A stretch of DNA of 64,000 bases from positions 8,311 through 72,310 of the forward strand of contig JAGLSG010000064.1 of the NCBI GenBank assembly GCA_023135865.1, written 5' to 3'. The DNA is from Planctomycetota bacterium (GTDB taxonomy: Bacteria > Planctomycetota > Phycisphaerae > Sedimentisphaerales > Anaerobacaceae). A program made the translations under genes and the position numbers. The notes below the pieces were generated by a model. The model ran no database searches, was not told the DNA's origin, and saw only the letters and a program-made list of their open reading frames with translations. Positions 793-26,961 of the stretch are shown here, in pieces (position 1 is the stretch's first letter; each line of letters starts with the position of its first letter).

Positions 793-3357
793 TTATTTAT
801 CTGGTTTTTCTTTTGGATTATCCGCACTTTCAGCCATTATTTTAGCAGCTGCAACGAGTTTGTCATCAGCTTTCATTTTAATCAAACGCACGCCCTGCGT
901 ATTTCTGCCGATGGAGCGTATCTGGTCAAGACCGGTACGAATAATTATTCCGTTTGCAGTTATCATCATCAAATCGTCATTGGACTGAATAGCTTTTAGC
1001 GCAACGACTTTACCATTTCTATCTGTTGTTTTTATATTTATAAGCCCTAAGCCGCCTCGGCTTTGCACACGATAATTATCAAGTACAGTTCTTTTACCGT
1101 AACCATTTTCGCACACCGTAAGCAGAGATGCCTTTTCTTCATTGATTACCATATCGATTACAGAATCTTTATTACGCAATTTTATTCCTATCACGCCTCT
1201 TGAAACTCTGCCCATTGAACGAACCTGTTTTTCGTCAAAGCGTATCGCCATTCCATCACGTGTGCCAAGAATGATATGACTATCGCCGGCTGTCAATGCG
1301 ACTCCAATCAGAGCGTCATCTGGGTCAAGTTTTATTGCAATTACACCGGTATTTCTCGGATGGCTGTACGCTGAAAGTTTTGTCTTTTTCACCAAGCCGT
1401 TTTTCGTTGCCATAACAAGCTGGCGATGCTGTGTTTCATCAGCACTTTCATCATCTTCAAAACTTCTAACATTTATTATTGATGCTATTGCCTGGTCGCC
1501 GAGTTTCAGAAGATTAGCTATATTTCTTCCCTTACTCTGGCGGGACATACTCGGAACATCATAAACCTTCAGCCAGTAGCACTTGCCTCTGTTAGTGAAA
1601 ACCAGCAGATAGTCATGCGTAGAAGCGGTGAAGAGATGCTCGAGGAAATCGCCTTCTTTTGTATCCGAACCGATAATTCCCCTGCCGCCTCTTGCCTGTT
1701 TACGATAAGTATCCATCGGCATTCTTTTAACGTATCCATCGTGGCTCACCGTAACAATAACATCTTCGTCAGCGATTAAATCTTCTATGTCAAAGTTTTC
1801 AATGCCAGCAACAATTTTGGTTCGCCTTTTGTCAGCGTATTTTTCTTTCATTTCGTGAATATCTTCACGGATAATATCCATCAGAACCTGCTCATTAGCA
1901 AGGATTGCTTCGTAGCCATCTATCTGCTCGGCAAGGTCTGAAAATTCTTTAGCAAGTTTTTCCATTTCAAGTCCGGTCAGCCGCTGCAGCTGCATTGTCA
2001 AAATGGCATCGGTCTGCGGGCCTGTCAGAAATTGATTGGTTTTACTTTTCTCTTTAATAAAAGAGTCAGGCAGAATTTTTTTCAGTGTAGCCGAAGTAAC
2101 CAACCGCAATGCTTTTTTCATCAGGTTGATTTTGGCCGTTGGTGCGTCTGGAGATTTTTTTATAATTTCGATGATTTCGTCAATATCACCAACAGCGAGA
2201 ATCAGGCCTTCAAGAATGTGAGACCTGTTTCTGCATTTGCTCAGCATAAACTTGCTTCGTCTTCTGATGACAATTTTTCTATGCTCGATAAAATATTCAA
2301 GCATCTGTTTAATGTTGAGCGTTTCCGGCCGATTATTAACAAGTGCTATATTTGCGATGGCAAATGTTGTCTGCAACAAAGTATAGCGATAGAGTTTATT
2401 TAAGACGACTTCGCCGTCAGCATCTCTCTTCAAATCCACAACTATCCGCAAGCCGTGCCGGTCGGACTCATCTCTTACATCCGAAATTTCCGCAACGGAA
2501 CCGTTCTGCACACAAGCCGCAATTTTCGCTACGATTGTGGTTTTAACAACCATATATGGAATTTCAGTTATTACGATTTTTTCTCTGCCTTTTTTGTTTG
2601 TTTCAATAGCTGCTTTGGCTCTAACAGTCAGATGGCCTTTTCCTGTTGTGTAGGCATCTTTAATTCCTTTTCTGCCGCAAATCATTCCACCTGTTGGAAA
2701 ATCAGGCCCAGGCAGGCATTTGATAATATCTTTGAATCCACAATCCGGCTCTTCTATAACCAGCAGCAATGCATCGCAAACTTCGCCAAGATTATGTGGC
2801 GGAATATTAGTAGCCATTCCAACTGCAATACCAGTTGAGCCGTTCACCAACAGGTTTGGAAATTTAGCCGGAAGAACTGTCGGCTCCTCGCGGGTTTCAT
2901 CATAGTTCGGCACAAAATCAACGGTGTCATATTTAATATCAGACATCATTTCCATAGCCGGCGCAGCCATTCTTGCCTCGGTGTATCGCATAGCAGCCGG
3001 CGGGTCGGAATCAATACTTCCAAAGTTGCCCTGCGGGTCAATCATCTGGTATCGCATATTCCATTGCTGGCCGAGCCGCACGAGCGTGCCATAAGTTGCC
3101 TGGTCGCCGTGAGGATGGTAATTACCGCCCGTATCACCGACGATTTTAGCGCATTTACGATGCTTGCTGCGCGGGCCGAGACTCAGGTCGTTCATTGCAA
3201 CAAGTATTCGCCTTTGTGAGGGTTTTAATCCGTCCCGTACATCCGGCAGAGCTCTTGAGACAATCACACTCATCGCATAATTGAGGTAGGAAACTTTTAA
3301 TTCATCGAGAATACGCATATCCTCAAAGCGTTCCTGTAGCAGATTAGCTTCATCCAT
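793..3357 (-). CDS. gyrA: DNA gyrase subunit A
   Basis: 854 aa. N-terminus LNYAMSVIVSRALPDVRDGLKPSQRRILVAM, catalytic region AAMRYTEARM, and C-terminal beta-pinwheel repeats. Confidence 0.97.
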   Translation of the reverse strand: MDEANLLQERFEDMRILDELKVSYLNYAMSVIVSRALPDVRDGLKPSQRRILVAMNDLSLGPRSKHRKCAKIVGDTGGNYHPHGDQATYGTLVRLGQQWNMRYQMIDPQGNFGSIDSDPPAAMRYTEARMAAPAMEMMSDIKYDTVDFVPNYDETREEPTVLPAKFPNLLVNGSTGIAVGMATNIPPHNLGEVCDALLLVIEEPDCGFKDIIKCLPGPDFPTGGMICGRKGIKDAYTTGKGHLTVRAKAAIETNKKGREKIVITEIPYMVVKTTIVAKIAACVQNGSVAEISDVRDESDRHGLRIVVDLKRDADGEVVLNKLYRYTLLQTTFAIANIALVNNRPETLNIKQMLEYFIEHRKIVIRRRSKFMLSKCRNRSHILEGLILAVGDIDEIIEIIKKSPDAPTAKINLMKKALRLVTSATLKKILPDSFIKEKSKTNQFLTGPQTDAILTMQLQRLTGLEMEKLAKEFSDLAEQIDGYEAILANEQVLMDIIREDIHEMKEKYADKRRTKIVAGIENFDIEDLIADEDVIVTVSHDGYVKRMPMDTYRKQARGGRGIIGSDTKEGDFLEHLFTASTHDYLLVFTNRGKCYWLKVYDVPSMSRQSKGRNIANLLKLGDQAIASIINVRSFEDDESADETQHRQLVMATKNGLVKKTKLSAYSHPRNTGVIAIKLDPDDALIGVALTAGDSHIILGTRDGMAIRFDEKQVRSMGRVSRGVIGIKLRNKDSVIDMVINEEKASLLTVCENGYGKRTVLDNYRVQSRGGLGLINIKTTDRNGKVVALKAIQSNDDLMMITANGIIIRTGLDQIRSIGRNTQGVRLIKMKADDKLVAAAKIMAESADNPKEKPDK

Positions 3358-7311: not shown

Positions 7312-7722
7312 CTAAACACTAAATTTTTCACTATTGCCGATTTTTTCAGCAGCAATCTCTACCAGAGCCAAAAATGATGTATTTATCTGCTGAAAAGTCA
7401 GCTTTTTCAAAGCCGGCTCGGCTCCCTTATCTAACTTCGTAAATTTCCGTGAAATCATTAACAAATAATCGAATCCAGCTGGAATTTGCTCCTGATTTTG
7501 CCGAAACGCCTCTCTTAACAGCCGTTTCAGCCGATTTCGCACAACCGCCCTTTTATCGTACACTTTGCCAACCGAAACACCCAGCCGTGAGTAGCCGCAA
7601 TCATTTCTCGCTATGTACATTGTGAGCAGCTCATTTCTAAAACTGATTTTATTAGCGAGAACATTTTTGAACTGCTCGTTACTTACAAGCCGTTGTTTTT
7701 TTTTAAAGGTCAGCTGTTTCAT
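7312..7722 (-). CDS. rnpA: Ribonuclease P protein component
   Basis: 136 aa. KKQRLVSNEQFKNV...RLGVSVGKVYDKRAVVRNRLKRLLREAFR is the RnpA signature (RNR motif). Confidence 0.85.
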   Translation of the reverse strand: MKQLTFKKKQRLVSNEQFKNVLANKISFRNELLTMYIARNDCGYSRLGVSVGKVYDKRAVVRNRLKRLLREAFRQNQEQIPAGFDYLLMISRKFTKLDKGAEPALKKLTFQQINTSFLALVEIAAEKIGNSEKFSV

Positions 7723-21322: not shown

Positions 21323-22483
21323 TTATTGCTCATCCTCAATTTGCGTTTTGGGTGATTGACTCGCTATATTAATCAGCACGCCAACTGCAGCAGCGGTGAG
21401 AAGCAAACTTGTTCCGCCGGCACTTACAAACGGCAAAGGCACACCTTTTGTCGGCAGCATAGCTGTAGCTACGCCAATGTTAAGTGCGGCCTGGCCAACA
21501 ATTGACAAAACAATTCCAGCTGCGAGAAACTGGCCAAAACGGCTTTTGCATCGAACGATAACCATTATTCCGAGCAAAGCAAAAATGATAAACAAAACGA
21601 TGATTGCCGCTGCTCCAAAAAAACCAAGCTCTTCTGCAATTATGGAAAAAATAAAATCGGTTGTGTCTTCCGGCAAATGGCCGTATTTGCAAATTCCTCT
21701 GCCAAGCCCTTTTCCGAACAGGCCGCCTGAGCCAATCGCAATAAGAGATTGATTTGCCTGGTAGCCAGTTGAATCAGCCCATTTTTCAGGATTTAGAAAA
21801 GCTGCAATCCGCCGCATACGATTCGGCGAATGGATTAAAACCGCAGCAGCCGCAGCAAAACAAAACGGAAGCGGCGTTAAAACGTGCCAGAATTTTACGC
21901 CGGCAATTATCAACATTAGAAAACTCAAAAATAATATGAAAGCCGCTGTACCGAGATCTTCGGTAATTATTAATCCAGCCACAACAGCTACAACGCCGCA
22001 AATCGGCACAAATCTTTTCCAGTACAATTTTATGTCGCTGCCGATTCTATCGCAAATAGCAGCAAGAAAAAATATAACCGACCATTTGGCCAATTCTGAC
22101 GGCTGAAAACTAATCGTAATAGCTCCAATTGGAATCCGCAGCCATCGGCGAGCATAGTTTATTTCCGTACCAAATCGCGGAACAAGAACAATCGCAAGCA
22201 ATATTGCGCTCAAAGCCAAAATGTATGTGGTTGGTGATTTGAATAGGCCGGAATCCATACTGAATTTGCGGTAATTGAAACAGGAGGCAATATACATAAT
22301 CAGGCCAGCCAGCGGAAAAAACATCATTTGCCGCAAATGGGGAAATTCATAGAAACGGCTTAAATCGAATTCCTGCTCGACACTAACTCCAGCTGAAAAT
22401 ACAAAGACTACGCCGACAGCCATTAGGATAATGACCACCATAGCGATATTGCGAGCGAGCGAATTGTCTTTTATACTGTTCAC
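21323..22483 (-). CDS. ftsW: FtsW/RodA/SpoVE-family peptidoglycan glycosyltransferase
   Basis: 386 aa and about 10 TM. SHAPE-family motifs QPSELAKW, GLGRG...LPE..TDFIFS and GGTSLL. Confidence 0.9.
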   Translation of the reverse strand: MNSIKDNSLARNIAMVVIILMAVGVVFVFSAGVSVEQEFDLSRFYEFPHLRQMMFFPLAGLIMYIASCFNYRKFSMDSGLFKSPTTYILALSAILLAIVLVPRFGTEINYARRWLRIPIGAITISFQPSELAKWSVIFFLAAICDRIGSDIKLYWKRFVPICGVVAVVAGLIITEDLGTAAFILFLSFLMLIIAGVKFWHVLTPLPFCFAAAAAVLIHSPNRMRRIAAFLNPEKWADSTGYQANQSLIAIGSGGLFGKGLGRGICKYGHLPEDTTDFIFSIIAEELGFFGAAAIIVLFIIFALLGIMVIVRCKSRFGQFLAAGIVLSIVGQAALNIGVATAMLPTKGVPLPFVSAGGTSLLLTAAAVGVLINIASQSPKTQIEDEQ

Positions 22484-22559
22484 AATTGCATTTTCCCGTT
22501 TATTTTATCCGTTGAAAAGATTCATAATACGTGTATTTTCGGCTGACTGAAACAAATAA

Positions 22560-23190
22560 ATTTAGAATCCTTCGGCCACGCTCAGGACAGGTGTATGATT
22601 AAGAATTCAAAATTCAACTGGTTAGCCCTGCCATTACTATGGCGAGGTCATTTTCAATCAAAATCGTCAAAAAAATATTCGATTTGGGGAGTACAAAATC
22701 CGAAAATATGGCATTTTTCGGTTTTTTTTTATTCGATTTTTCGGCCAAACCTCATTTTTAGCCCAAAACCAAAGGGGGGCAAATCACCATGCGTAATTTA
22801 GATAAGATAAGTAAGAAAAAAACGGTCGAAAAGTGAGTGTTTTTTATCGTTTTTTGTCAATTTTGGTCAAAAATGAGCAGGAATTTACCGTTTTTCGTCA
22901 AAAATGAACCAGTTTTTTCATGACCTCTTTTTTTTGAATCAATCGTTTTGGAAAGTTTTTGGAACGGGAAATTAACCACGGATTTCACGGATTAACACGG
23001 ATTTCTAAGAATCTATTTTTGTTTAATCGCAGATTACACTGATTTCGCTGATTAAAAAGGCGGAATTTAACCACGAATTTTTCGTATTGTGTTCCTTCGA
23101 CTTCGCTACGCTCAGGACAGGCGTGCGTGATGTGTATTGCGTAATCGGTTAGCCCTGCCAGCACTTTGGCAGGGTTGAAAGTATTTGTTA
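22560..23190. repeat. Composite repeat block (left arm) flanking the orphan ATPase gene
   Basis: Modules in order: ACGCTCAGGACAGG + GGTTAGCCCTGCCA-N6-TGGC(A)GGG hairpin (22577-22647); T-rich 'tttttcg' tract; CACGGATT x3 (22974-23005); 41-nt core TTAATCGCAGATTACACTGATTTCGCTGATTAAAAAGGCGG (23023-23063); second ACGCTCAGGACAGG (23107-23123); hairpin GGTTAGCCCTGCCAgcacttTGGCAGGGTT (23147-23176). Confidence 0.75.
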
Positions 23191-23222
23191 CTGAATCTGT
23201 TTTTTATGACAAAAACGTGGTT

Positions 23223-25709
23223 TTAGTTTTTGTTGCTTAATGCTTTTGCAACAAATGAGCATGCTCCTGTAACAGGGCCTATAAAAGCCATCCCTATAAT
23301 TAAACTCAGATTAATCGGTATTTTCCAAACATACAGTAGATTAATGTTATGCCAAGTAGAATCTTTATTGGTTATCTCGGTCAAATTATCTCTAAATGTA
23401 AACGATAAGTCGGTAAATAAGCCGGTAAAAATTGCAACACTGATGTATAATAATAAAATAATAACAAAAGATTTGAAATATTCAATACAGCAAAAGTATC
23501 TTGCTCTCTTGAGAGCTGTCGCAAAATCCAAAACTTTACCTTTAATAAATATTGCTATAATAAAACTACAAAACACACCTATGCCTGCTGCAATTCCCAA
23601 AATTATAAGATCATCATAAAATTCATTATTGCCTACATCAACTATGAAAGATACCACTTTATCTATGTTTGCAATTGCTACGCTAATAATAGCAAAAAAT
23701 GGCACCATCAATAAAGTATTATTGATTAGGAGTTTTTTATACAATTTCCGTGAATCCGGCAAATCACAGTATTTTTCTGAAAAAACAGCCCTAAACATCA
23801 TCCATGCGAGACCTGCAAAGAAAGCCGCTACGACGAATGTTATTATAGTTCGGAGAATTTTTCCAGGAGTACCAGCTTCTGAAATCTCACCGGTGAAGAA
23901 TGCAGCTATAAATAAAGGAATAACAACAATAAAAAAAACGGTTACTGCAGGATGCCGAAAAAATCGGCCAGCTAAATTTTTACAGCACCCAAAATGTAGT
24001 TGCAAAACTGAAGTTGCGCGACTGTAATCATGTACTTCGACAAGTCGGTCAAAAGCGTTTTTTGTAAGTTCTTCAAAATCAGGAAATTTTTCATCCCCAA
24101 ACTTTTTCATATATTCTACTCTTACTGCCAAAAGTCTGTCAAAGCCGTTGCCAAATTTCATTTTCTTTTGTGTTTTTTCTAAAGACAAAATGCTTCTATC
24201 AAGGATTATTTTGCCTGTTTCGATTTTTATTTGTTTTTTTTGTTCCCCAAACCAGTCATTTCCTTCAAAATAACCACACAGCTTCTTAACGTAGTTGTCA
24301 ATTTCCCTCTCGATAGCTCCGCCATTTTTTGCTGCTCTGTAATTTTCCGTATTTGAATCGCAATATGACAGCAGATCACGTAAGACAGACAAAATTTTAT
24401 GCAGTCTGTCGCATTTTAAATAAATATCCCCAAGTTCTATCTCACTGTCATCCTGACGTTGTTCGTGCCAGTCTTCTACAAGACTTCCGAGAGTGTTTGT
24501 TATTTTTTTGACGTTTTCATAGTCGAGCTTAACGTAAGATTTGCAAATACCCTGTTCTATCCGTTCATACTTATCTGCAAGGGCGTTGATGTATTCTCTA
24601 ACATAATTTGTAAATGACTCAGAAAACAGCATTAACGCTCCTTCGTTTTTGTCATCATCTTTGAGTATTCCTCTGAGGTATAATGATTCTAATTCTTCGT
24701 GTATATCCATTTTTTCGCGATTTATTCCGTCTGTTCTTTGGGAAGTAATTAACCAGTCACGTTCTTTCTTTCCAAGCGATGACCACATCCGGTCAAATTC
24801 TTCATCTGCTTCGACACGATATTTTTTCGTCCATAAAACTTCTGGTTCATTGCCATTGGAAACCCAATCGAACAAATTTGCACAGGCTATTTTTAAGAAA
24901 TATGGATGTCTTCCGGCAATATCAATTGCCTCCCGACGTTGTTTTGCCGAAAAGTAATCTGCATCTTCGCCATGAAATTTTAAAGTTCCCACTATGAGTT
25001 GCTCGCATCCATTTTCCTGAAGGAGCCCCAAATACAACGGAGTGCTGAAATTATTATCAAATGGCGAACCGTCAGAGTCCGTCTCTCGAGATATTTGCGA
25101 CAACGGCTTTCTTGACGAAGTAACATATGCTAAAGCATAATTGTCTGAGATACCTCTTAGATAGTGTAAAAATTTTACATCTTCATGTGCGAGATTTCTG
25201 GCCAATAGCTCAAATTCATCGAAAAGAAAAACAAAACGGTATTTTTTTTCACAGGCATCCCGAAGCAAATTTTTCAGTATAATTTGTGGATGCCGTTGGT
25301 GTGCTTCTTTTTTATCAAGAGCTTTCGGATAATATTCGACAAATTCTGCAAGTTCAGGTTTTTCTGAAATAATTTCGTCAATAAGAATCCATGTAAATTC
25401 CTTTGAACTGCTGGTATTAATTTCTTCAGGGTCAATCATTATGCAGACAAACTTTTCCGGTTCAATTAACTTATCTTCGTATTCTTTCCAAACATCACAC
25501 TTTCTCTTTGAAAATATTTGATATATCCTGGTGAGTAGGGATGATTTGCCGGATCTCCGTTCGCCTATTACTGCTACGCTTTGTGGTTCTTTATAAGTAA
25601 TGTTTTTGATTATGTAATCTAACTCACGTTTTCTGCCGAAAAACTCTGCCGGTTCCGTAACTTTATTACGGTTCAAAAAAGGATTCATTTTTGTTTTAAC
25701 AGCTGGCAT
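23223..25709 (-). CDS. Orphan P-loop NTPase (Arch_ATPase/AAA_16, STAND-like) fused to a C-terminal 6-helix membrane domain
   Basis: 828 aa. FFGRKRELDYI...VIGERRSGKSSLL (Walker A, aa 49-57); YRFVFLFDEFE (Walker B, aa 157-167); PLYLGLL and GRHPYFLKIA (STAND/Arch_ATPase-like helical and wHTH signatures); helical region aa ~370-585. Six hydrophobic segments lie at about aa 588-606, 618-642, 660-682, 700-722, 745-765 and 797-822. RBS is GGGAGGaaattcaATG. Confidence 0.8.
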   Translation of the reverse strand: MPAVKTKMNPFLNRNKVTEPAEFFGRKRELDYIIKNITYKEPQSVAVIGERRSGKSSLLTRIYQIFSKRKCDVWKEYEDKLIEPEKFVCIMIDPEEINTSSSKEFTWILIDEIISEKPELAEFVEYYPKALDKKEAHQRHPQIILKNLLRDACEKKYRFVFLFDEFELLARNLAHEDVKFLHYLRGISDNYALAYVTSSRKPLSQISRETDSDGSPFDNNFSTPLYLGLLQENGCEQLIVGTLKFHGEDADYFSAKQRREAIDIAGRHPYFLKIACANLFDWVSNGNEPEVLWTKKYRVEADEEFDRMWSSLGKKERDWLITSQRTDGINREKMDIHEELESLYLRGILKDDDKNEGALMLFSESFTNYVREYINALADKYERIEQGICKSYVKLDYENVKKITNTLGSLVEDWHEQRQDDSEIELGDIYLKCDRLHKILSVLRDLLSYCDSNTENYRAAKNGGAIEREIDNYVKKLCGYFEGNDWFGEQKKQIKIETGKIILDRSILSLEKTQKKMKFGNGFDRLLAVRVEYMKKFGDEKFPDFEELTKNAFDRLVEVHDYSRATSVLQLHFGCCKNLAGRFFRHPAVTVFFIVVIPLFIAAFFTGEISEAGTPGKILRTIITFVVAAFFAGLAWMMFRAVFSEKYCDLPDSRKLYKKLLINNTLLMVPFFAIISVAIANIDKVVSFIVDVGNNEFYDDLIILGIAAGIGVFCSFIIAIFIKGKVLDFATALKRARYFCCIEYFKSFVIILLLYISVAIFTGLFTDLSFTFRDNLTEITNKDSTWHNINLLYVWKIPINLSLIIGMAFIGPVTGACSFVAKALSNKN

Positions 25710-25769
25710 TTGAATTTCCTCCCATGTATTGAAACGAGTCCTTAGAAATCTCTAATGTTTACGAAGCAA

Positions 25770-25799
25770 AGTATAATGGTGTTGTGGTTTAAATTGCAA
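25770..25799 (-). promoter_or_regulatory. Candidate promoter of the orphan ATPase gene (TTGCAA-N18-TATACT on the minus strand)
   Basis: -35 TTGCAA (25799-25794), an 18-nt spacer, and -10 TATACT (25775-25770), about 55 nt upstream of the ATG. Pattern match only. Confidence 0.4.
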
Positions 25800-25840
25800 C
25801 AAAAAAATGTTAGAATGTTTAGTGTCGGTCATCTGTTTTT

Positions 25841-26260
25841 CCTTAGCCCCTTCGCAAGAAATTAAGGGGTAATGAAAAAACATCGAAAATAAAACCCGAT
25901 AGAAAAGAACCCTGCCATAGTGATGGCAGGGCTAACCCGTCTTCGCTAAAGCTTCCGCCTTCGTTAAAACTTCGGCGAGACAAGACGACGCGACAGGCCA
26001 AAAACGCAATACGAAATACACATCATAAAATATCCCTCCTTGACAGGAGGGGCTCTGTTGGGAACTAAACACGAAAAAATCCGTGTAATCAGCGTAATCC
26101 GTGGTTAAATTTTTCTGCCTTTTTAATCAGCGAAATCAGCGTAATCTGCGATTAAAATGCAATCAAAAGCCCTGAAAATCAAAAAAATGACAGAAAAACA
26201 CCAAAAAACACCAAAAAATGATGAAAATCCGTAAAAATTTATAAAAAATCGCAAAAAATA
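25841..26260. repeat. Composite repeat block (right arm), inverted relative to the left arm
   Basis: Hairpin CCCCTTcgcaagaaattAAGGGG; AACCCTGCCAtagtgaTGGCAGGGCTAACC (25908-25937, reverse complement of the 23147-23176 hairpin); family-H copy 3 (25941-25984); CCCTCCttgacaGGAGGG (26034-26051); AATCCGTG repeats (26078-26103). The core at 26115-26155 is the reverse complement of 23023-23063 with 2 mismatches in 41. An A-rich tract follows to ~26260. Confidence 0.75.
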
Positions 26261-26271
26261 ATATTTAGTTG

Positions 26272-26301
26272 TTGCACATTCCCTTTTCTACTTCCTATAA
26301 T
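26272..26301 (+). promoter_or_regulatory. Candidate cspA promoter (TTGCAC-N18-TATAAT) with ~105-nt 5' UTR
   Basis: -35 at 26272-26277 and -10 at 26296-26301. The long leader is typical of cold-shock genes. Confidence 0.5.
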
Positions 26302-26412
26302 AACAATATTGAAATATGGGGTTGCTATTTGGTCTCTCAGTATCGCTCCCAATTAAAACTAATAGAGAGACACTAAGAACTGCTCTTTTAAGCAGAGTCA
26401 AGGAGAACACAA

Positions 26413-26616
26413 GTGAGTACAGGTACAGTAAAATGGTTCAACGCAAGTAAAGGTTATGGTTTTATTACTCCTGATGATGGTGGAGATGATCTCTTCGTAC
26501 ATCATTCAGAAATTAAGACCTCTGGCTACGCATCACTCGACGAAGGTCAAACTGTTGAGTTTGAAGTCGGCCAAGGCAAGAAAGGCCCATGTGCAACAAA
26601 CGTAATTCCCGGCTAA
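26413..26616 (+). CDS. cspA: Cold-shock protein (CspA family)
   Basis: [31 protein letters not shown] (RNP1/RNP2 motifs). GTG start with AAGGAGA 6 nt upstream. Confidence 0.95.
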
Positions 26617-26668: not shown

Positions 26669-26755
26669 ATGGGTACAATTAACGCAAAAAAACATAAAAA
26701 TAAACCCATATGTAAATACACTTTAATGCCAATACTGATTAGTTGTTGCGACCTG

Positions 26756-26880
26756 GTCATTTCGACCGGAGAGCTACAAAGCAGCTTGAAGCGGAGAAAT
26801 CTATTAAAAAACAGATTTCCCTTCGTGGCTCTCTGCTTCCGCTTCGTGTCTCAACTACGCTCCACTTCGCTCGAAATGAC
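26756..26880. repeat. GTCATT...AATGAC nested-palindrome element (family E), copy 2
   Basis: The outer 10-bp inverted repeat is GTCATTTCGA...TCGAAATGAC. Inner imperfect palindromes include GAAGCGGAGAAATCT...AGATTTCCCTTC and others. Confidence 0.7.
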
Positions 26881-26932
26881 ACTTTTGCAAAACACAGTAA
26901 TTATTCTTAATTGGCATAACCGGCATTTAACC

Positions 26933-26961
26933 TTGACAGAATAAAGCCATAAAGGTAAATT
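26933..26961 (+). promoter_or_regulatory. Candidate thrS promoter (TTGACA-N17-TAAATT)
   Basis: -35 at 26933-26938 and -10 at 26956-26961. Pattern match only. Confidence 0.4.

Follow-up and report, generated by a model that had tools for sequence, protein, structure and literature searches.

A single gene between ftsW and cspA in a planctomycete genome is bracketed by long, imperfect inverted repeats, and the question raised by this locus is whether the repeats are the ends of a mobile element, the arms of a switch or the borders of something else. The window analysed is a stretch of 64,000 nucleotides, to which all coordinates below refer unless a contig is named. The earlier note had described the repeats as facing arms of 170–350 bp that resemble the termini of a non-autonomous element. 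The inverted repeats were recovered: a 44-nt core at 23022-23065 is 95% complementary to 26113-26156 (I1), and a 30-nt hairpin at 23147-23176 pairs with 25908-25937 at 93% (I3). Two shorter pairings join the arms through the GATGTGTATT..GCGT unit (23128-23150 with 26003-26025, I8) and through AATTTAACCACG (23064-23079 with 26096-26111, I21). Both arms, read inward, have the order that had been proposed, namely core, AACCACG-type unit, GATGTGTATT and hairpin, and a third partial copy does lie in direct orientation in the left arm (22575-22648 against 23105-23175; D8, D11). The only real gene between the arms is 23223-25709 on the minus strand, and neither a transposase nor an integrase is enclosed with it.

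Other parts of that description had to be revised. The mirrored stretch measures about 155 nt on the left (23022-23176) and about 250 nt on the right (25908-26156). The CACGGATT block, placed distal to the core in both arms, is distal on the left, whereas its right-hand copy (26078-26103) is proximal. The outer A/T-rich tracts are not homologous to each other: that on the left is a 23-copy element called E330 (22646-22973), and that on the right is single-copy cspA upstream sequence (26157-26300), which the sister genomes share. Nor is the core unique to the locus: it is one member of a tri-unit family (TU) with 39 copies, and an exact 26-mer of it occurs three times in the genome. The left and right cores have a similarity of 0.857, a value in the upper 1.2% of pairs across the TU family, which is borderline given the number of comparisons.

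Instead of forming a terminal repeat pair of their own, the arms are assembled from module families with copies throughout the genome. Repeat coverage on the left begins at about 22560, and the modules of this arm read on the plus strand. The outer end (22560-22648) consists of a CCTTCG..GCTCAGGACAGG module and a degenerate copy (22620-22648) of a REP-like hairpin, HP; it contains the D8 and D11 repeats. E330 follows (22646-22973), an A/T-rich dispersed element of about 320 nt with a terminator-like hairpin (22700-22721), a Lys-rich mini-ORF of 15 codons and three TTTTTGTCAAAAA-like boxes; neither a conserved RNA fold nor an Rfam match was found for it. Two tri-unit modules (C[AG]CNGATT x3) come next, TU-A (22969-23005, AACCACGGATT-TCACGGATT-AACACGGATT) and TU-B, the core itself (23022-23065, CGCAGATT-ACACTGATT-TCGCTGATT inside TTTAAT...TTAAAAAGGCGG). 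The inner modules (23064-23146) are a degenerate TU (AATTTAACCACGAATTTTTCGTATT), CCTTCGAC..GCTCAGGACAGG and GATGTGTATTGCGTAATC, which take part in I6, I8, I21 and D9, and the arm closes with HP(+) (23147-23176), GGTTAG-CCCTGCCA-loop-TGGCAGGG, whose T-rich tail points toward the gene.

The right arm reads on the minus strand. Going outward from the gene, it comprises HP(-) (25908-25937), again with its tail toward the gene; inner modules (25938-26075), which are a 73-nt module, a GATGTGTATT-type unit (26003-26025) and a 50-nt module with the hairpin CCCTCCTTGACAGGAGGG; TU-A' (26078-26111; minus-strand reading AACCACGGATT-ACGCTGATT-ACACGGATT; I5, D6; regex match at C91:34388-34413); and TU-B' (26113-26156), the right copy of the core. 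The two hairpins fold with −22.4 kcal/mol (z = −4.0) for HP(+) and −23.3 kcal/mol (z = −4.3) for HP(-), and both are predicted to be terminator-like, HP(-) on the minus strand; terminator and promoter calls in this work are consensus or thermodynamic predictions only.

HP has 37 copies in the genome, all of them intergenic, and is the commonest member of a 125-copy superfamily of TTAGC hairpins with a conserved GGTTAG, GATTAG or GTTTAG head. The 39 copies of TU compare with no match in a reversed-genome control, and near-exact copies of TU-A are present in several phyla. E330 has 23 copies on 19 contigs of this genome (G000) and many more in a sister genome, and none was found outside the genus; one copy has an orthologue in the sister species and is therefore old and static. 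There are 15 copies of the GATGTGTATT module, 5 of the 73-nt module and 14 of the 50-nt module.

Using HP, TU and E330 as markers, the whole genome (1.69 Mb) was surveyed; judged from its relatives, it appears to be that of a Phycisphaerae/Sedimentisphaerales-type planctomycete. Intervals with several markers have them co-oriented in 27 of 28 cases, and the lone interval of mixed orientation faces outward. The order within an array is strictly polar, from E330 through the tri-unit modules to the REP-like hairpin. Among the 16 pairs of marked intervals that lie no more than three genes apart, 11 face inward around one to three genes (binomial p = 2.9e-4), and inward-facing arrangements outnumber outward-facing ones by 11 to 1. 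The earlier note had suggested looking for paired arms around other cargo genes, and these do recur; its converse, modules scattered singly with no pairing, is contradicted by the same pairs. The genome has at least 11 slots in which facing arrays enclose horizontally acquired, low-GC genes, mostly of anti-phage defence. These counts use crude ORF calls as the gene set, and slot and copy numbers are lower bounds because contigs break at repeats and some pairs are split.

The GC content of the enclosed genes is 0.367, compared with 0.423 for the genome on average (Mann-Whitney p = 4e-9), whereas genes in non-slot marker configurations are normal in this respect. E330 points from core DNA to foreign DNA at 17 of 18 loci, with a GC content of 0.351 for the gene in front and 0.437 for the gene behind (p = 7.6e-6), and TU points toward the low-GC side at 22 of 29 loci. 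The cargo includes matches to DarG (7.9e-94), DarT (1.1e-37), the Rosmer-like RmrA (2.7e-59) and a type II MTase (6.5e-122), together with a MjaI-type REase and an IrrE/capP-like peptidase; type II R-M systems are among the slots. No empty slot, with facing arms and nothing between them, was found in the genome.

Such a pattern could in principle result from modules that spread singly, in the manner of REPs or MITEs, into the permissive borders of acquired AT-rich DNA and play no role in moving cargo. Their polarity would then stem from selection against read-through into toxic foreign genes, or from preferences of the modules for targets or orientations. Nesting speaks for this, with other small modules sitting inside tri-unit modules on C122, C45 and G001:C121, for example, and so do the HP-only copies beside ordinary genes, whose tail faces the 3' end of the gene in 13 of 13 cases within 100 nt, and the TU modules that adjoin housekeeping genes in other phyla. 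Lineage-specific arms and a cargo that is independent of them (see below) fit as well. However, independent insertion alone would not align three unrelated kinds of module in 27 of 28 intervals, nor would it polarise E330, itself no terminator, at 17 of 18 loci. There is also little read-through to block because the core genes beside a slot are often oriented away from it, as ftsW and cspA both are, and markers occupy just 50 of the 1,652 intergenic intervals. We consider this explanation unlikely.

The gene enclosed at the present locus encodes a protein of 828 aa with a STAND NTPase and a C-terminal multi-helix membrane region. Its Pfam match to nSTAND2 (7.9e-09; 35.6 bits, cut-off 24) places it in the P-loop STAND class, and nSTAND1 (1.6e-05) falls just under its own cut-off. 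The gene's GC content of 0.357 corresponds to the 3rd percentile of this genome. A PADLOC search gave no match, the gene was not found among 30 relatives, and only about 12 full-length homologues, at 35–49% identity, were found among 5.8 billion proteins. HP(+) sits 46 nt from its 3' end and HP(-) 199 nt upstream of its start codon. A candidate promoter (25770-25799, minus strand, TTGCAA-18-TATACT), which comes from a consensus scan only, is placed inside the hairpin-bounded unit.

Inverted repeats of 30–44 nt around a single gene would also be expected if the arms recombined to flip the STAND gene and so made a costly defence gene phase-variable, and repeated inversion would yield the roughly 5:5 orientation of cargo relative to the long arm that we read across the slots. 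However, with the candidate promoter inside the unit a flip would not silence the gene, and no invertase or recombinase lies near the locus. The ftsW-STAND-cspA arrangement is identical in all of the assemblies of the same population (at least eight), none of which has an inverted or excised form at assembly level, where a minor orientation could escape. An invertible segment is therefore very improbable.

Sequence comparison indicates that cargo identity and arms are independent of each other. The junction on the cspA side (about 26157) is orthologous in G001:C121, L074 and L075, relatives among which are the sister species and a contig from a metagenome. Three distinct sequences occur leftward of this junction, one in G000 and L075, one in G001:C121 and one in L074; in G001:C121 the inward hairpins enclose another two small ORFs. 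Since G001 repeats thus stand with a different cargo at the same cspA locus, the arms appear to be independent of the STAND cargo, an outcome that the earlier note had named as speaking against its cassette reading, here a discrete transposon made of arms plus cargo. The R-M and DarTG cargoes occur at 78–85% protein identity in other families, in which FtsW is only 40–50% identical, and there the arms are absent. A further genus of the host's own family also has the R-M pair enclosed by inward TU modules, but at another site. The descriptive account, which comprises the families, their polarity, the inward pairing, the pointing from core to foreign DNA and the independence of arms and cargo, can be held with high confidence.

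The facing arrays may alternatively be the asymmetric ends, a long one with E330 and a short one, of non-autonomous cassettes mobilised in trans. One version would be a 'giant REPIN', a gene trapped between inverted REP hairpins that a RAYT-like Y1 transposase would cut and rejoin; in another, a different enzyme would bind the tri-unit repeats, much as transposases occupy multiple sites at the ends of Tn7 or Mu. Strict polarity toward the cargo and inward pairing are expected of such ends, the distal TTAG heads of the paired hairpins are mutually complementary as in a REPIN, the tri-unit modules resemble arrays of protein-binding sites with a spacing of 9–10 bp, and transposon cargo would show the same 5:5 orientation. 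The genome also has two RAYT-like Y1_Tnp genes (C45:1998-2447 and C45:56141-56686) flanked by inverted sister REPs that share a TTAGCC head. However, left and right arms match only at the family level: in the other slots, left/right TU pairs match no more closely than pairs drawn at random from the family, and the STAND slot alone has a well-matched pair, which is internal to its arms. Arm composition differs among slots, no target-site duplication is seen at the outer STAND junctions (22560 and 26157), no slot cargo has a second copy in the genome, the same cargoes occur elsewhere without arms, and one E330 copy is static, as described above. No slot contains or adjoins a transposase gene; in the genome search TnpB and IS110 were absent, DDE transposases were not associated with slots, and a single rve gene, that of an IS3 copy on C70, bears no relation to the arms. 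Integrases near slots were likewise not found, and those of the genome appear from C-terminal translations to abut tRNA-like sequence, without flanking repeats. The arms are thus poor candidates for the terminal inverted repeats of a non-autonomous element, and mobilisation of the cassettes is doubtful.

MITE-bounded composites, such as integron mobilisation units and MITE pairs around resistance genes, likewise have a single gene between inverted non-coding repeats and no internal transposase, but the slots are without matched TIRs across slots, target-site duplications, a repeated arms-plus-cargo unit or a cognate transposase. Tn7-like and Mu-like elements share the asymmetric inverted ends with several directly repeated short sites each, often a defence cargo and often an insertion just downstream of a core gene; here, however, the units measure 8–9 bp instead of about 20 bp, the composition of the ends varies by slot and no TnsB/rve-type transposase is associated. 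Integron cassettes, with their attC sites and with chromosomal integrons that store defence genes, resemble the slots as small, often single-gene defence or toxin-antitoxin units with a folded hairpin at the border and a polar repeat order. In contrast to them, the slots have no IntI/attI platform, are dispersed and not gathered in one array, have inverted borders where attC sites are co-oriented, and carry cargo with its own predicted promoter.

Overall, the best explanation is that the polar arrays are the borders of acquired defence islets and probably provide portable homology and insulation, a reading to which we assign a probability of about one half. The arrays would be lineage-specific border elements and not the ends of one transposon. 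The recombination and insulation mechanism within this reading is tentative, at somewhat less than even odds. Right-arm blocks of 88–125 nt recur at 90–97% identity on C50, C117 and C13, and because multi-module blocks of 90–125 nt are this similar between slots, the arms may supply portable homology; a double crossover in both arms could then swap the enclosed cargo, exchanging cassettes between strains or slots. The inward hairpins with their T-rich tails may act as terminators that shield a cargo with its own promoter from outside transcription. Against this stand the identical arrangement in all of the population assemblies, with no exchange event observed, the failure to find an empty slot, and the fact that homology alone accounts for inverted arms but not for the excess of inward over outward facing.

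In Neisseria, NIME/dRS3 arrays are intergenic mosaics of several short repeat families, and minimal mobile elements are single sites between conserved genes that hold different accessory genes in each strain, R-M systems among them. Their exchange is attributed to homologous recombination, with no dedicated transposase. The slots are likewise intergenic mosaics of several short repeat families with R-M cargo. However, the slot arrays keep a strict polarity and lie opposed on either side of the cargo, their families have no sequence relationship to the Neisseria ones, the host is a planctomycete without evidence of natural transformation, and exchange has not been observed.

For the origin of the hairpin, the two RAYT-like genes with sister REPs suggest a REP/RAYT setting, and HP may spread as a REP element through the Y1 transposases encoded elsewhere in the genome. 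The REP-like character proposed earlier is supported, as is the recurrence of paired arms; the discrete cassette and its inversion or excision are not. As in REP/REPIN-RAYT systems (TnpA-REP, IS200/IS605-like Y1; 'REPtrons'), HP is an imperfect palindrome, short, extragenic and present in many copies, whose conserved TTAG head adjoins the stem, in a genome that encodes Y1_Tnp-like proteins, two of them between inverted same-head hairpins. It differs in that none of the Y1 genes found in this assembly (94.5% complete) has HP on its flanks, that the heads are distal in the slots and proximal in the REPtrons of this genome, that slot pairs lie 0.6–9 kb apart around unrelated genes and not around a RAYT gene or a short spacer, and that the arms also hold the non-palindromic TU and E330. 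Outside the right arm, the cspA upstream region (26157-26412, plus strand) is single-copy, A-rich sequence with a repeat coverage of 0 that includes the promoter and 5' leader, and it gave a weak match to the Rfam cspA thermoregulator.

The interval between ftsW (21323-22483, minus strand) and cspA (26413-26616, plus strand) belongs to an assembly, G000, of 1.69 Mb in 129 contigs with 41.9% GC, in which the window is C91:8311-72310. It holds a left repeat block of 640 nt (~22560-23200), the minus-strand STAND gene (23223-25709) and a right repeat block of 270 nt (~25890-26156), beyond which a single-copy upstream region and a leader precede cspA, with thrS next. The STAND protein of 828 aa has a Pfam match to nSTAND2, a weaker one to nSTAND1 and a C-terminal membrane region; a candidate promoter of its gene lies at 25770-25799. 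An earlier note had described this gene as bracketed by inverted repeats built from the same ordered modules, like the ends of a non-autonomous element. The core inverted repeat was indeed found (23022-23065 versus 26113-26156, 44 nt, 95% complementary), together with the hairpin pair (23147-23176 versus 25908-25937), the smaller modules common to both arms, which follow the same inward order in each, and the partial direct copy at 22575-22648. Other details had to be corrected. The right CACGGATT block, which had been placed distal to the core, is actually on its inner side. The outer A/T-rich tracts, taken to be counterparts, are unrelated, the left one being a multicopy element and the right one conserved cspA upstream sequence, and the mirrored stretch, put at about 170-350 bp, is really ~155 nt versus ~250 nt. 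An Rfam search of 22400-26500 at E <= 1 returned the cspA leader, one chance lncRNA match and nothing else. Between cspA and thrS, public gene callers place a 91-aa ORF (26669-26944), which overlies a palindromic repeat region and is missing from the related contigs L074 and L075, where thrS directly follows cspA; it is probably not a gene.

The bracket around the STAND gene is real, yet generic. A BLAST comparison of both arms with the whole assembly, as the note had proposed, gave 231 matches on dozens of contigs. Self-comparison of the assembly revealed 267 repeat blocks, and ~3% of its sequence occurs at least three times. All counts of repeat copies and pairs are lower bounds, because the assembly breaks at repeats. 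Three marker families were defined for counting. The REP-like hairpin (HP), GGTTAG-CCCTGCCA-loop-TGGCAGGG with a T-rich tail, has 37 copies with a folding energy of -22 to -23 kcal/mol (z about -4), and is terminator-like by prediction; it is nearly palindromic, and its orientation was assigned from head and tail. The tri-unit module (TU) consists of three C[AG]CNGATT units spaced by 9-10 nt. Its 39 copies represent more than 25 sequence variants, and the reversed genome gave 0 matches. The 41-nt core of the note is a member of this family, as is the CACGGATT block, and an exact 26-mer of the core occurs three times in the genome. The third family, E330 (22646-22973 at this locus), is an A/T-rich element of ~320 nt that occurs 23 times here and in many copies in the sister species; no copy was found outside the genus. 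Both an Rfam match and a conserved fold are lacking, and a structured RNA was rejected after RNAalifold on 16 copies gave only -10.5 kcal/mol on either strand. Within it (22775-22835), a Shine-Dalgarno-like AAAGGGGGG is followed by a possibly coding, Lys-rich mini-ORF of 15 codons (MRNLDKISKKKTVEK). Most copies retain it; the start codon is ATG, TTG or CTG, and several changes fall in third positions. The remaining arm sequence is made up of other small palindromic modules. Some of these, such as a 34-nt CTCGTGCTACGTAGCGATACTTCGCAGAGTAGTA and a CCTGTCCTGAGC..GTCGAAGG module, are inserted between TU units (G000:C122:560-640 and 2716-2830; G000:C45 ~7400-7460; L065:1255-1320), so that the repeat families are nested. 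Slots, as the sites with one to three low-GC genes between two facing arrays are called here, share multi-module blocks of 88-125 nt with 90-97% identity.

The arrays recur with a consistent polarity. Only 50 of the 1,652 intergenic intervals carry any of the three markers, and marker orientation is uniform in 27 of the 28 intervals with more than one. Where marked intervals are at most three genes apart, the orientation of the pair is inward in 11 cases, ++ in two, -- in two and outward in one (binomial p = 2.9e-4); for hairpins alone, 9 of 15 adjacent pairs, 0.6-8.8 kb apart, are inward-facing. The enclosed genes have a mean GC of 0.367 versus 0.423 for the 1,189 genes of the set, which consists of longest-ORF calls made in this analysis (Mann-Whitney p = 4e-9). 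Other configurations, such as enolase and cmk between two outward-facing arms, show normal gene GC, and many unpaired arms are directed at low-GC genes or a contig end. E330 marks borders directionally: the gene ahead of it (mean GC 0.351) is lower in GC than the gene behind (0.437) at 17 of 18 loci (Wilcoxon p = 7.6e-6). The same tendency is seen for TU at 22 of 29 loci. Passive accumulation of repeats, combined with selection for inward terminators, is considered unlikely; were the arrays insulators or passive repeats only, their polarity would still need an explanation.

The enclosed genes include DarG and DarT (PADLOC, 7.9e-94 and 1.1e-37), an RmrA-type HTH-peptidase with a partner gene (2.7e-59), a type II methyltransferase (6.5e-122) whose partner gene is conserved beside it in other genomes, an MjaI-type endonuclease with its methyltransferase, an IrrE/capP-like peptidase, a DUF4145 protein, several orphan membrane proteins and the STAND gene. 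The STAND bracket is one member of a recurrent polar architecture bordering acquired defence islets. The STAND protein itself has no PADLOC match and was not found in 30 relatives; among 5.8 billion proteins searched, only ~12 full-length homologues were obtained, at 35-49% identity. A larger low-GC island (GC 0.30-0.38) at G000:C50:2360-6395 is bordered by an E330/TU arm on one side and an inward hairpin on the other, and has ~6 genes, including a Bro-N protein and a D12-class methyltransferase fragment.

The arms and the cargo are independent of each other. The arms are not matched terminal inverted repeats, since the left and right TU copies of each slot are no more similar than random family members. 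The exception is the STAND slot, whose core (TU-B) pair ranks in the top 1.2% of all TU pairs, which is borderline after multiple testing. Nor do the arms travel with the STAND gene: four homologue loci (36-49% identity) have no TU, HP or inverted repeats, and in other genomes the homologues are solitary genes, flanked by long non-coding stretches between housekeeping genes. In other families of the order, DarG is 78-83% and the methyltransferase 81-85% identical, far above the 40-50% of FtsW; both have been transferred horizontally. The flanks of DarTG and the methyltransferase lack arms there, and some show direct repeats instead (47 nt in L194; 367 bp, 99.5% identical, in L198). In the latter (G060:C12), the repeats at 175-541 and 2711-3077 enclose the DarTG pair and contain a gene's 3' end, which resembles a long target duplication left by an insertion. 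The R-M pair of the genome under study at G000:C69:1994-5388 also occurs in another genus of its family (L203, G154:C47, 403-2620), again between inward-facing TU modules. Nucleotide identity is ~80% over the two ORFs only, and the pair adjoins the same dus gene in both genomes, on opposite sides. No second copy of any slot cargo, or of the cargo of the sister-species assembly, was found in the genome. On this evidence, the arms are a property of the host lineage rather than of the cargo.

Comparison among relatives, which covers the cspA side, shows that this side of the site is variable. From a common junction at ~26157 ('ATGCAATCAAAAGCC'), three different sequences extend leftward: the TU core in the genome under study and a second strain (L075); other modules, followed by two small, unrelated ORFs enclosed by a pair of inward hairpins, in the sister species (G001:C121); and, in a third contig (L074), a hairpin immediately next to the junction. 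The empty ftsW-cspA site sought by the note was not recovered, as the sister assembly has no ftsW and its contigs break at repeats; for the other slots, one orthologous E330 border was recovered from this fragmented genome. Neither cspA nor thrS was found within 6 kb of ftsW at 80 metagenome loci (FtsW <=71% identity), so that the ftsW-cspA synteny is genus-specific and absent at family level. Within one population, at least eight assemblies have an ftsW-STAND-cspA interval that is identical or 98.8-99.9% identical; this population is represented in the ZHAN22-2 series, SAMN18200491-98, and by GCA_030633685.1. Inversion of the segment, for which the facing 44-nt copies might serve, is regarded as very improbable.

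No transposase or integrase was found in or beside any slot in searches for PF00589 integrases, rve, IS110 and TnpB. The genome encodes two Xer-like recombinases, three integrases of ~440 aa and one IS3 copy, while searches for TnpB and IS110 found none. The integrases are not flanked by the arm repeats and, judging from their C-terminal translations, appear to abut tRNA-like sequence. Five ORFs match Y1_Tnp (IS200/RAYT-like) weakly. Two of these, outside the window at G000:C45:1998-2447 and G000:C45:56141-56686, have inverted hairpins on both sides with an xTTAGCC head and the head-plus-stem design of HP. The hairpin of the first reads GATTAG-CCCCAGC..., with the stop codon of the gene inside the head, and that of the other GTTTAG-CCGTTGTCGG...; both loci have the REPtron arrangement. 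A generic search found 125 TTAGC-hairpins in the genome, among which HP has the commonest stem. Given these sister hairpins and this superfamily, HP is best filed as a putative REP-type element, by shared design rather than by a RAYT of its own. A cassette mobilised in trans, as a giant REPIN or through multi-site transposon ends, could draw on such enzymes; with the unmatched arms and single-copy cargo described, it is considered unlikely.

In the preferred reading, the arrays may serve as portable homology through which the cargo between them is replaced, because blocks of 88-125 nt are so similar between slots, while the inward terminator-like hairpins would insulate cargo that has its own candidate promoter. 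Homology and insulation do not account for the inward, rather than merely inverted, facing or for the E330 polarity, which is why the rival explanations are retained. The arms resemble NIMEs and Tn7 ends. More speculatively, with a probability of roughly one in five, the lineage may have a dedicated polar slot system, in which E330/TU/REP arrays would be recombination ends that capture, hold and exchange foreign cassettes without an internal integrase; the activity might come from RAYT-like Y1 enzymes that have been domesticated, with the slots as giant REPINs with cargo, or from a TU-reading protein. Islands would then form by a new route, different from those of integrons, transposons and tRNA-targeting integrases. 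The clustering of defence genes in islands is known, but the entry and turnover of islets of one or two genes in reduced genomes without integrases or transposases are poorly understood. Here a 1.7-Mb genome offers a scorable rule: polar arrays run from the core towards low-GC defence cargo and face each other across it. If the arrays are recombination substrates, they would be a compact marker from which variable defence slots in uncultured planctomycetes could be predicted, and possibly a new route of cassette exchange. They are a practical guide to acquired genes in such MAGs, and explain why these assemblies break at slot sites.

The TU module extends beyond this genome. The 30-nt pattern AACCACGGATTTCRCGGATTRACRCGGATT, with three degenerate positions, is near-exact at 39 loci (L024-L062) in MAGs labelled Planctomycetota (Sedimentisphaerales, Phycisphaerae, Pirellulales), Verrucomicrobiota, Lentisphaeraceae and Bacteroidota, with a locus GC of 31% to 69%. 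Two loci, each from a different phylum, have it 5 nt and 24 nt ahead of PD-(D/E)XK_3 genes, which we take to be of the 'GxxExxY' type. Such genes were considered as TU partners in the genome under study and none is present in it; two 23S-IVS-type genes were seen there. No published description was found for TU, the flanks of GxxExxY genes or Sedimentisphaerales repeats. If the slot system exists, near-exact TU copies in PVC phyla and Bacteroidota, some of them directly upstream of multicopy PD-(D/E)XK 'GxxExxY'-type genes, would point to a widespread undescribed element. Elsewhere TU often occurs in inverted pairs that give long hairpins; example copies are L043:674-703, L056:477-506 and L062:2554-2640.
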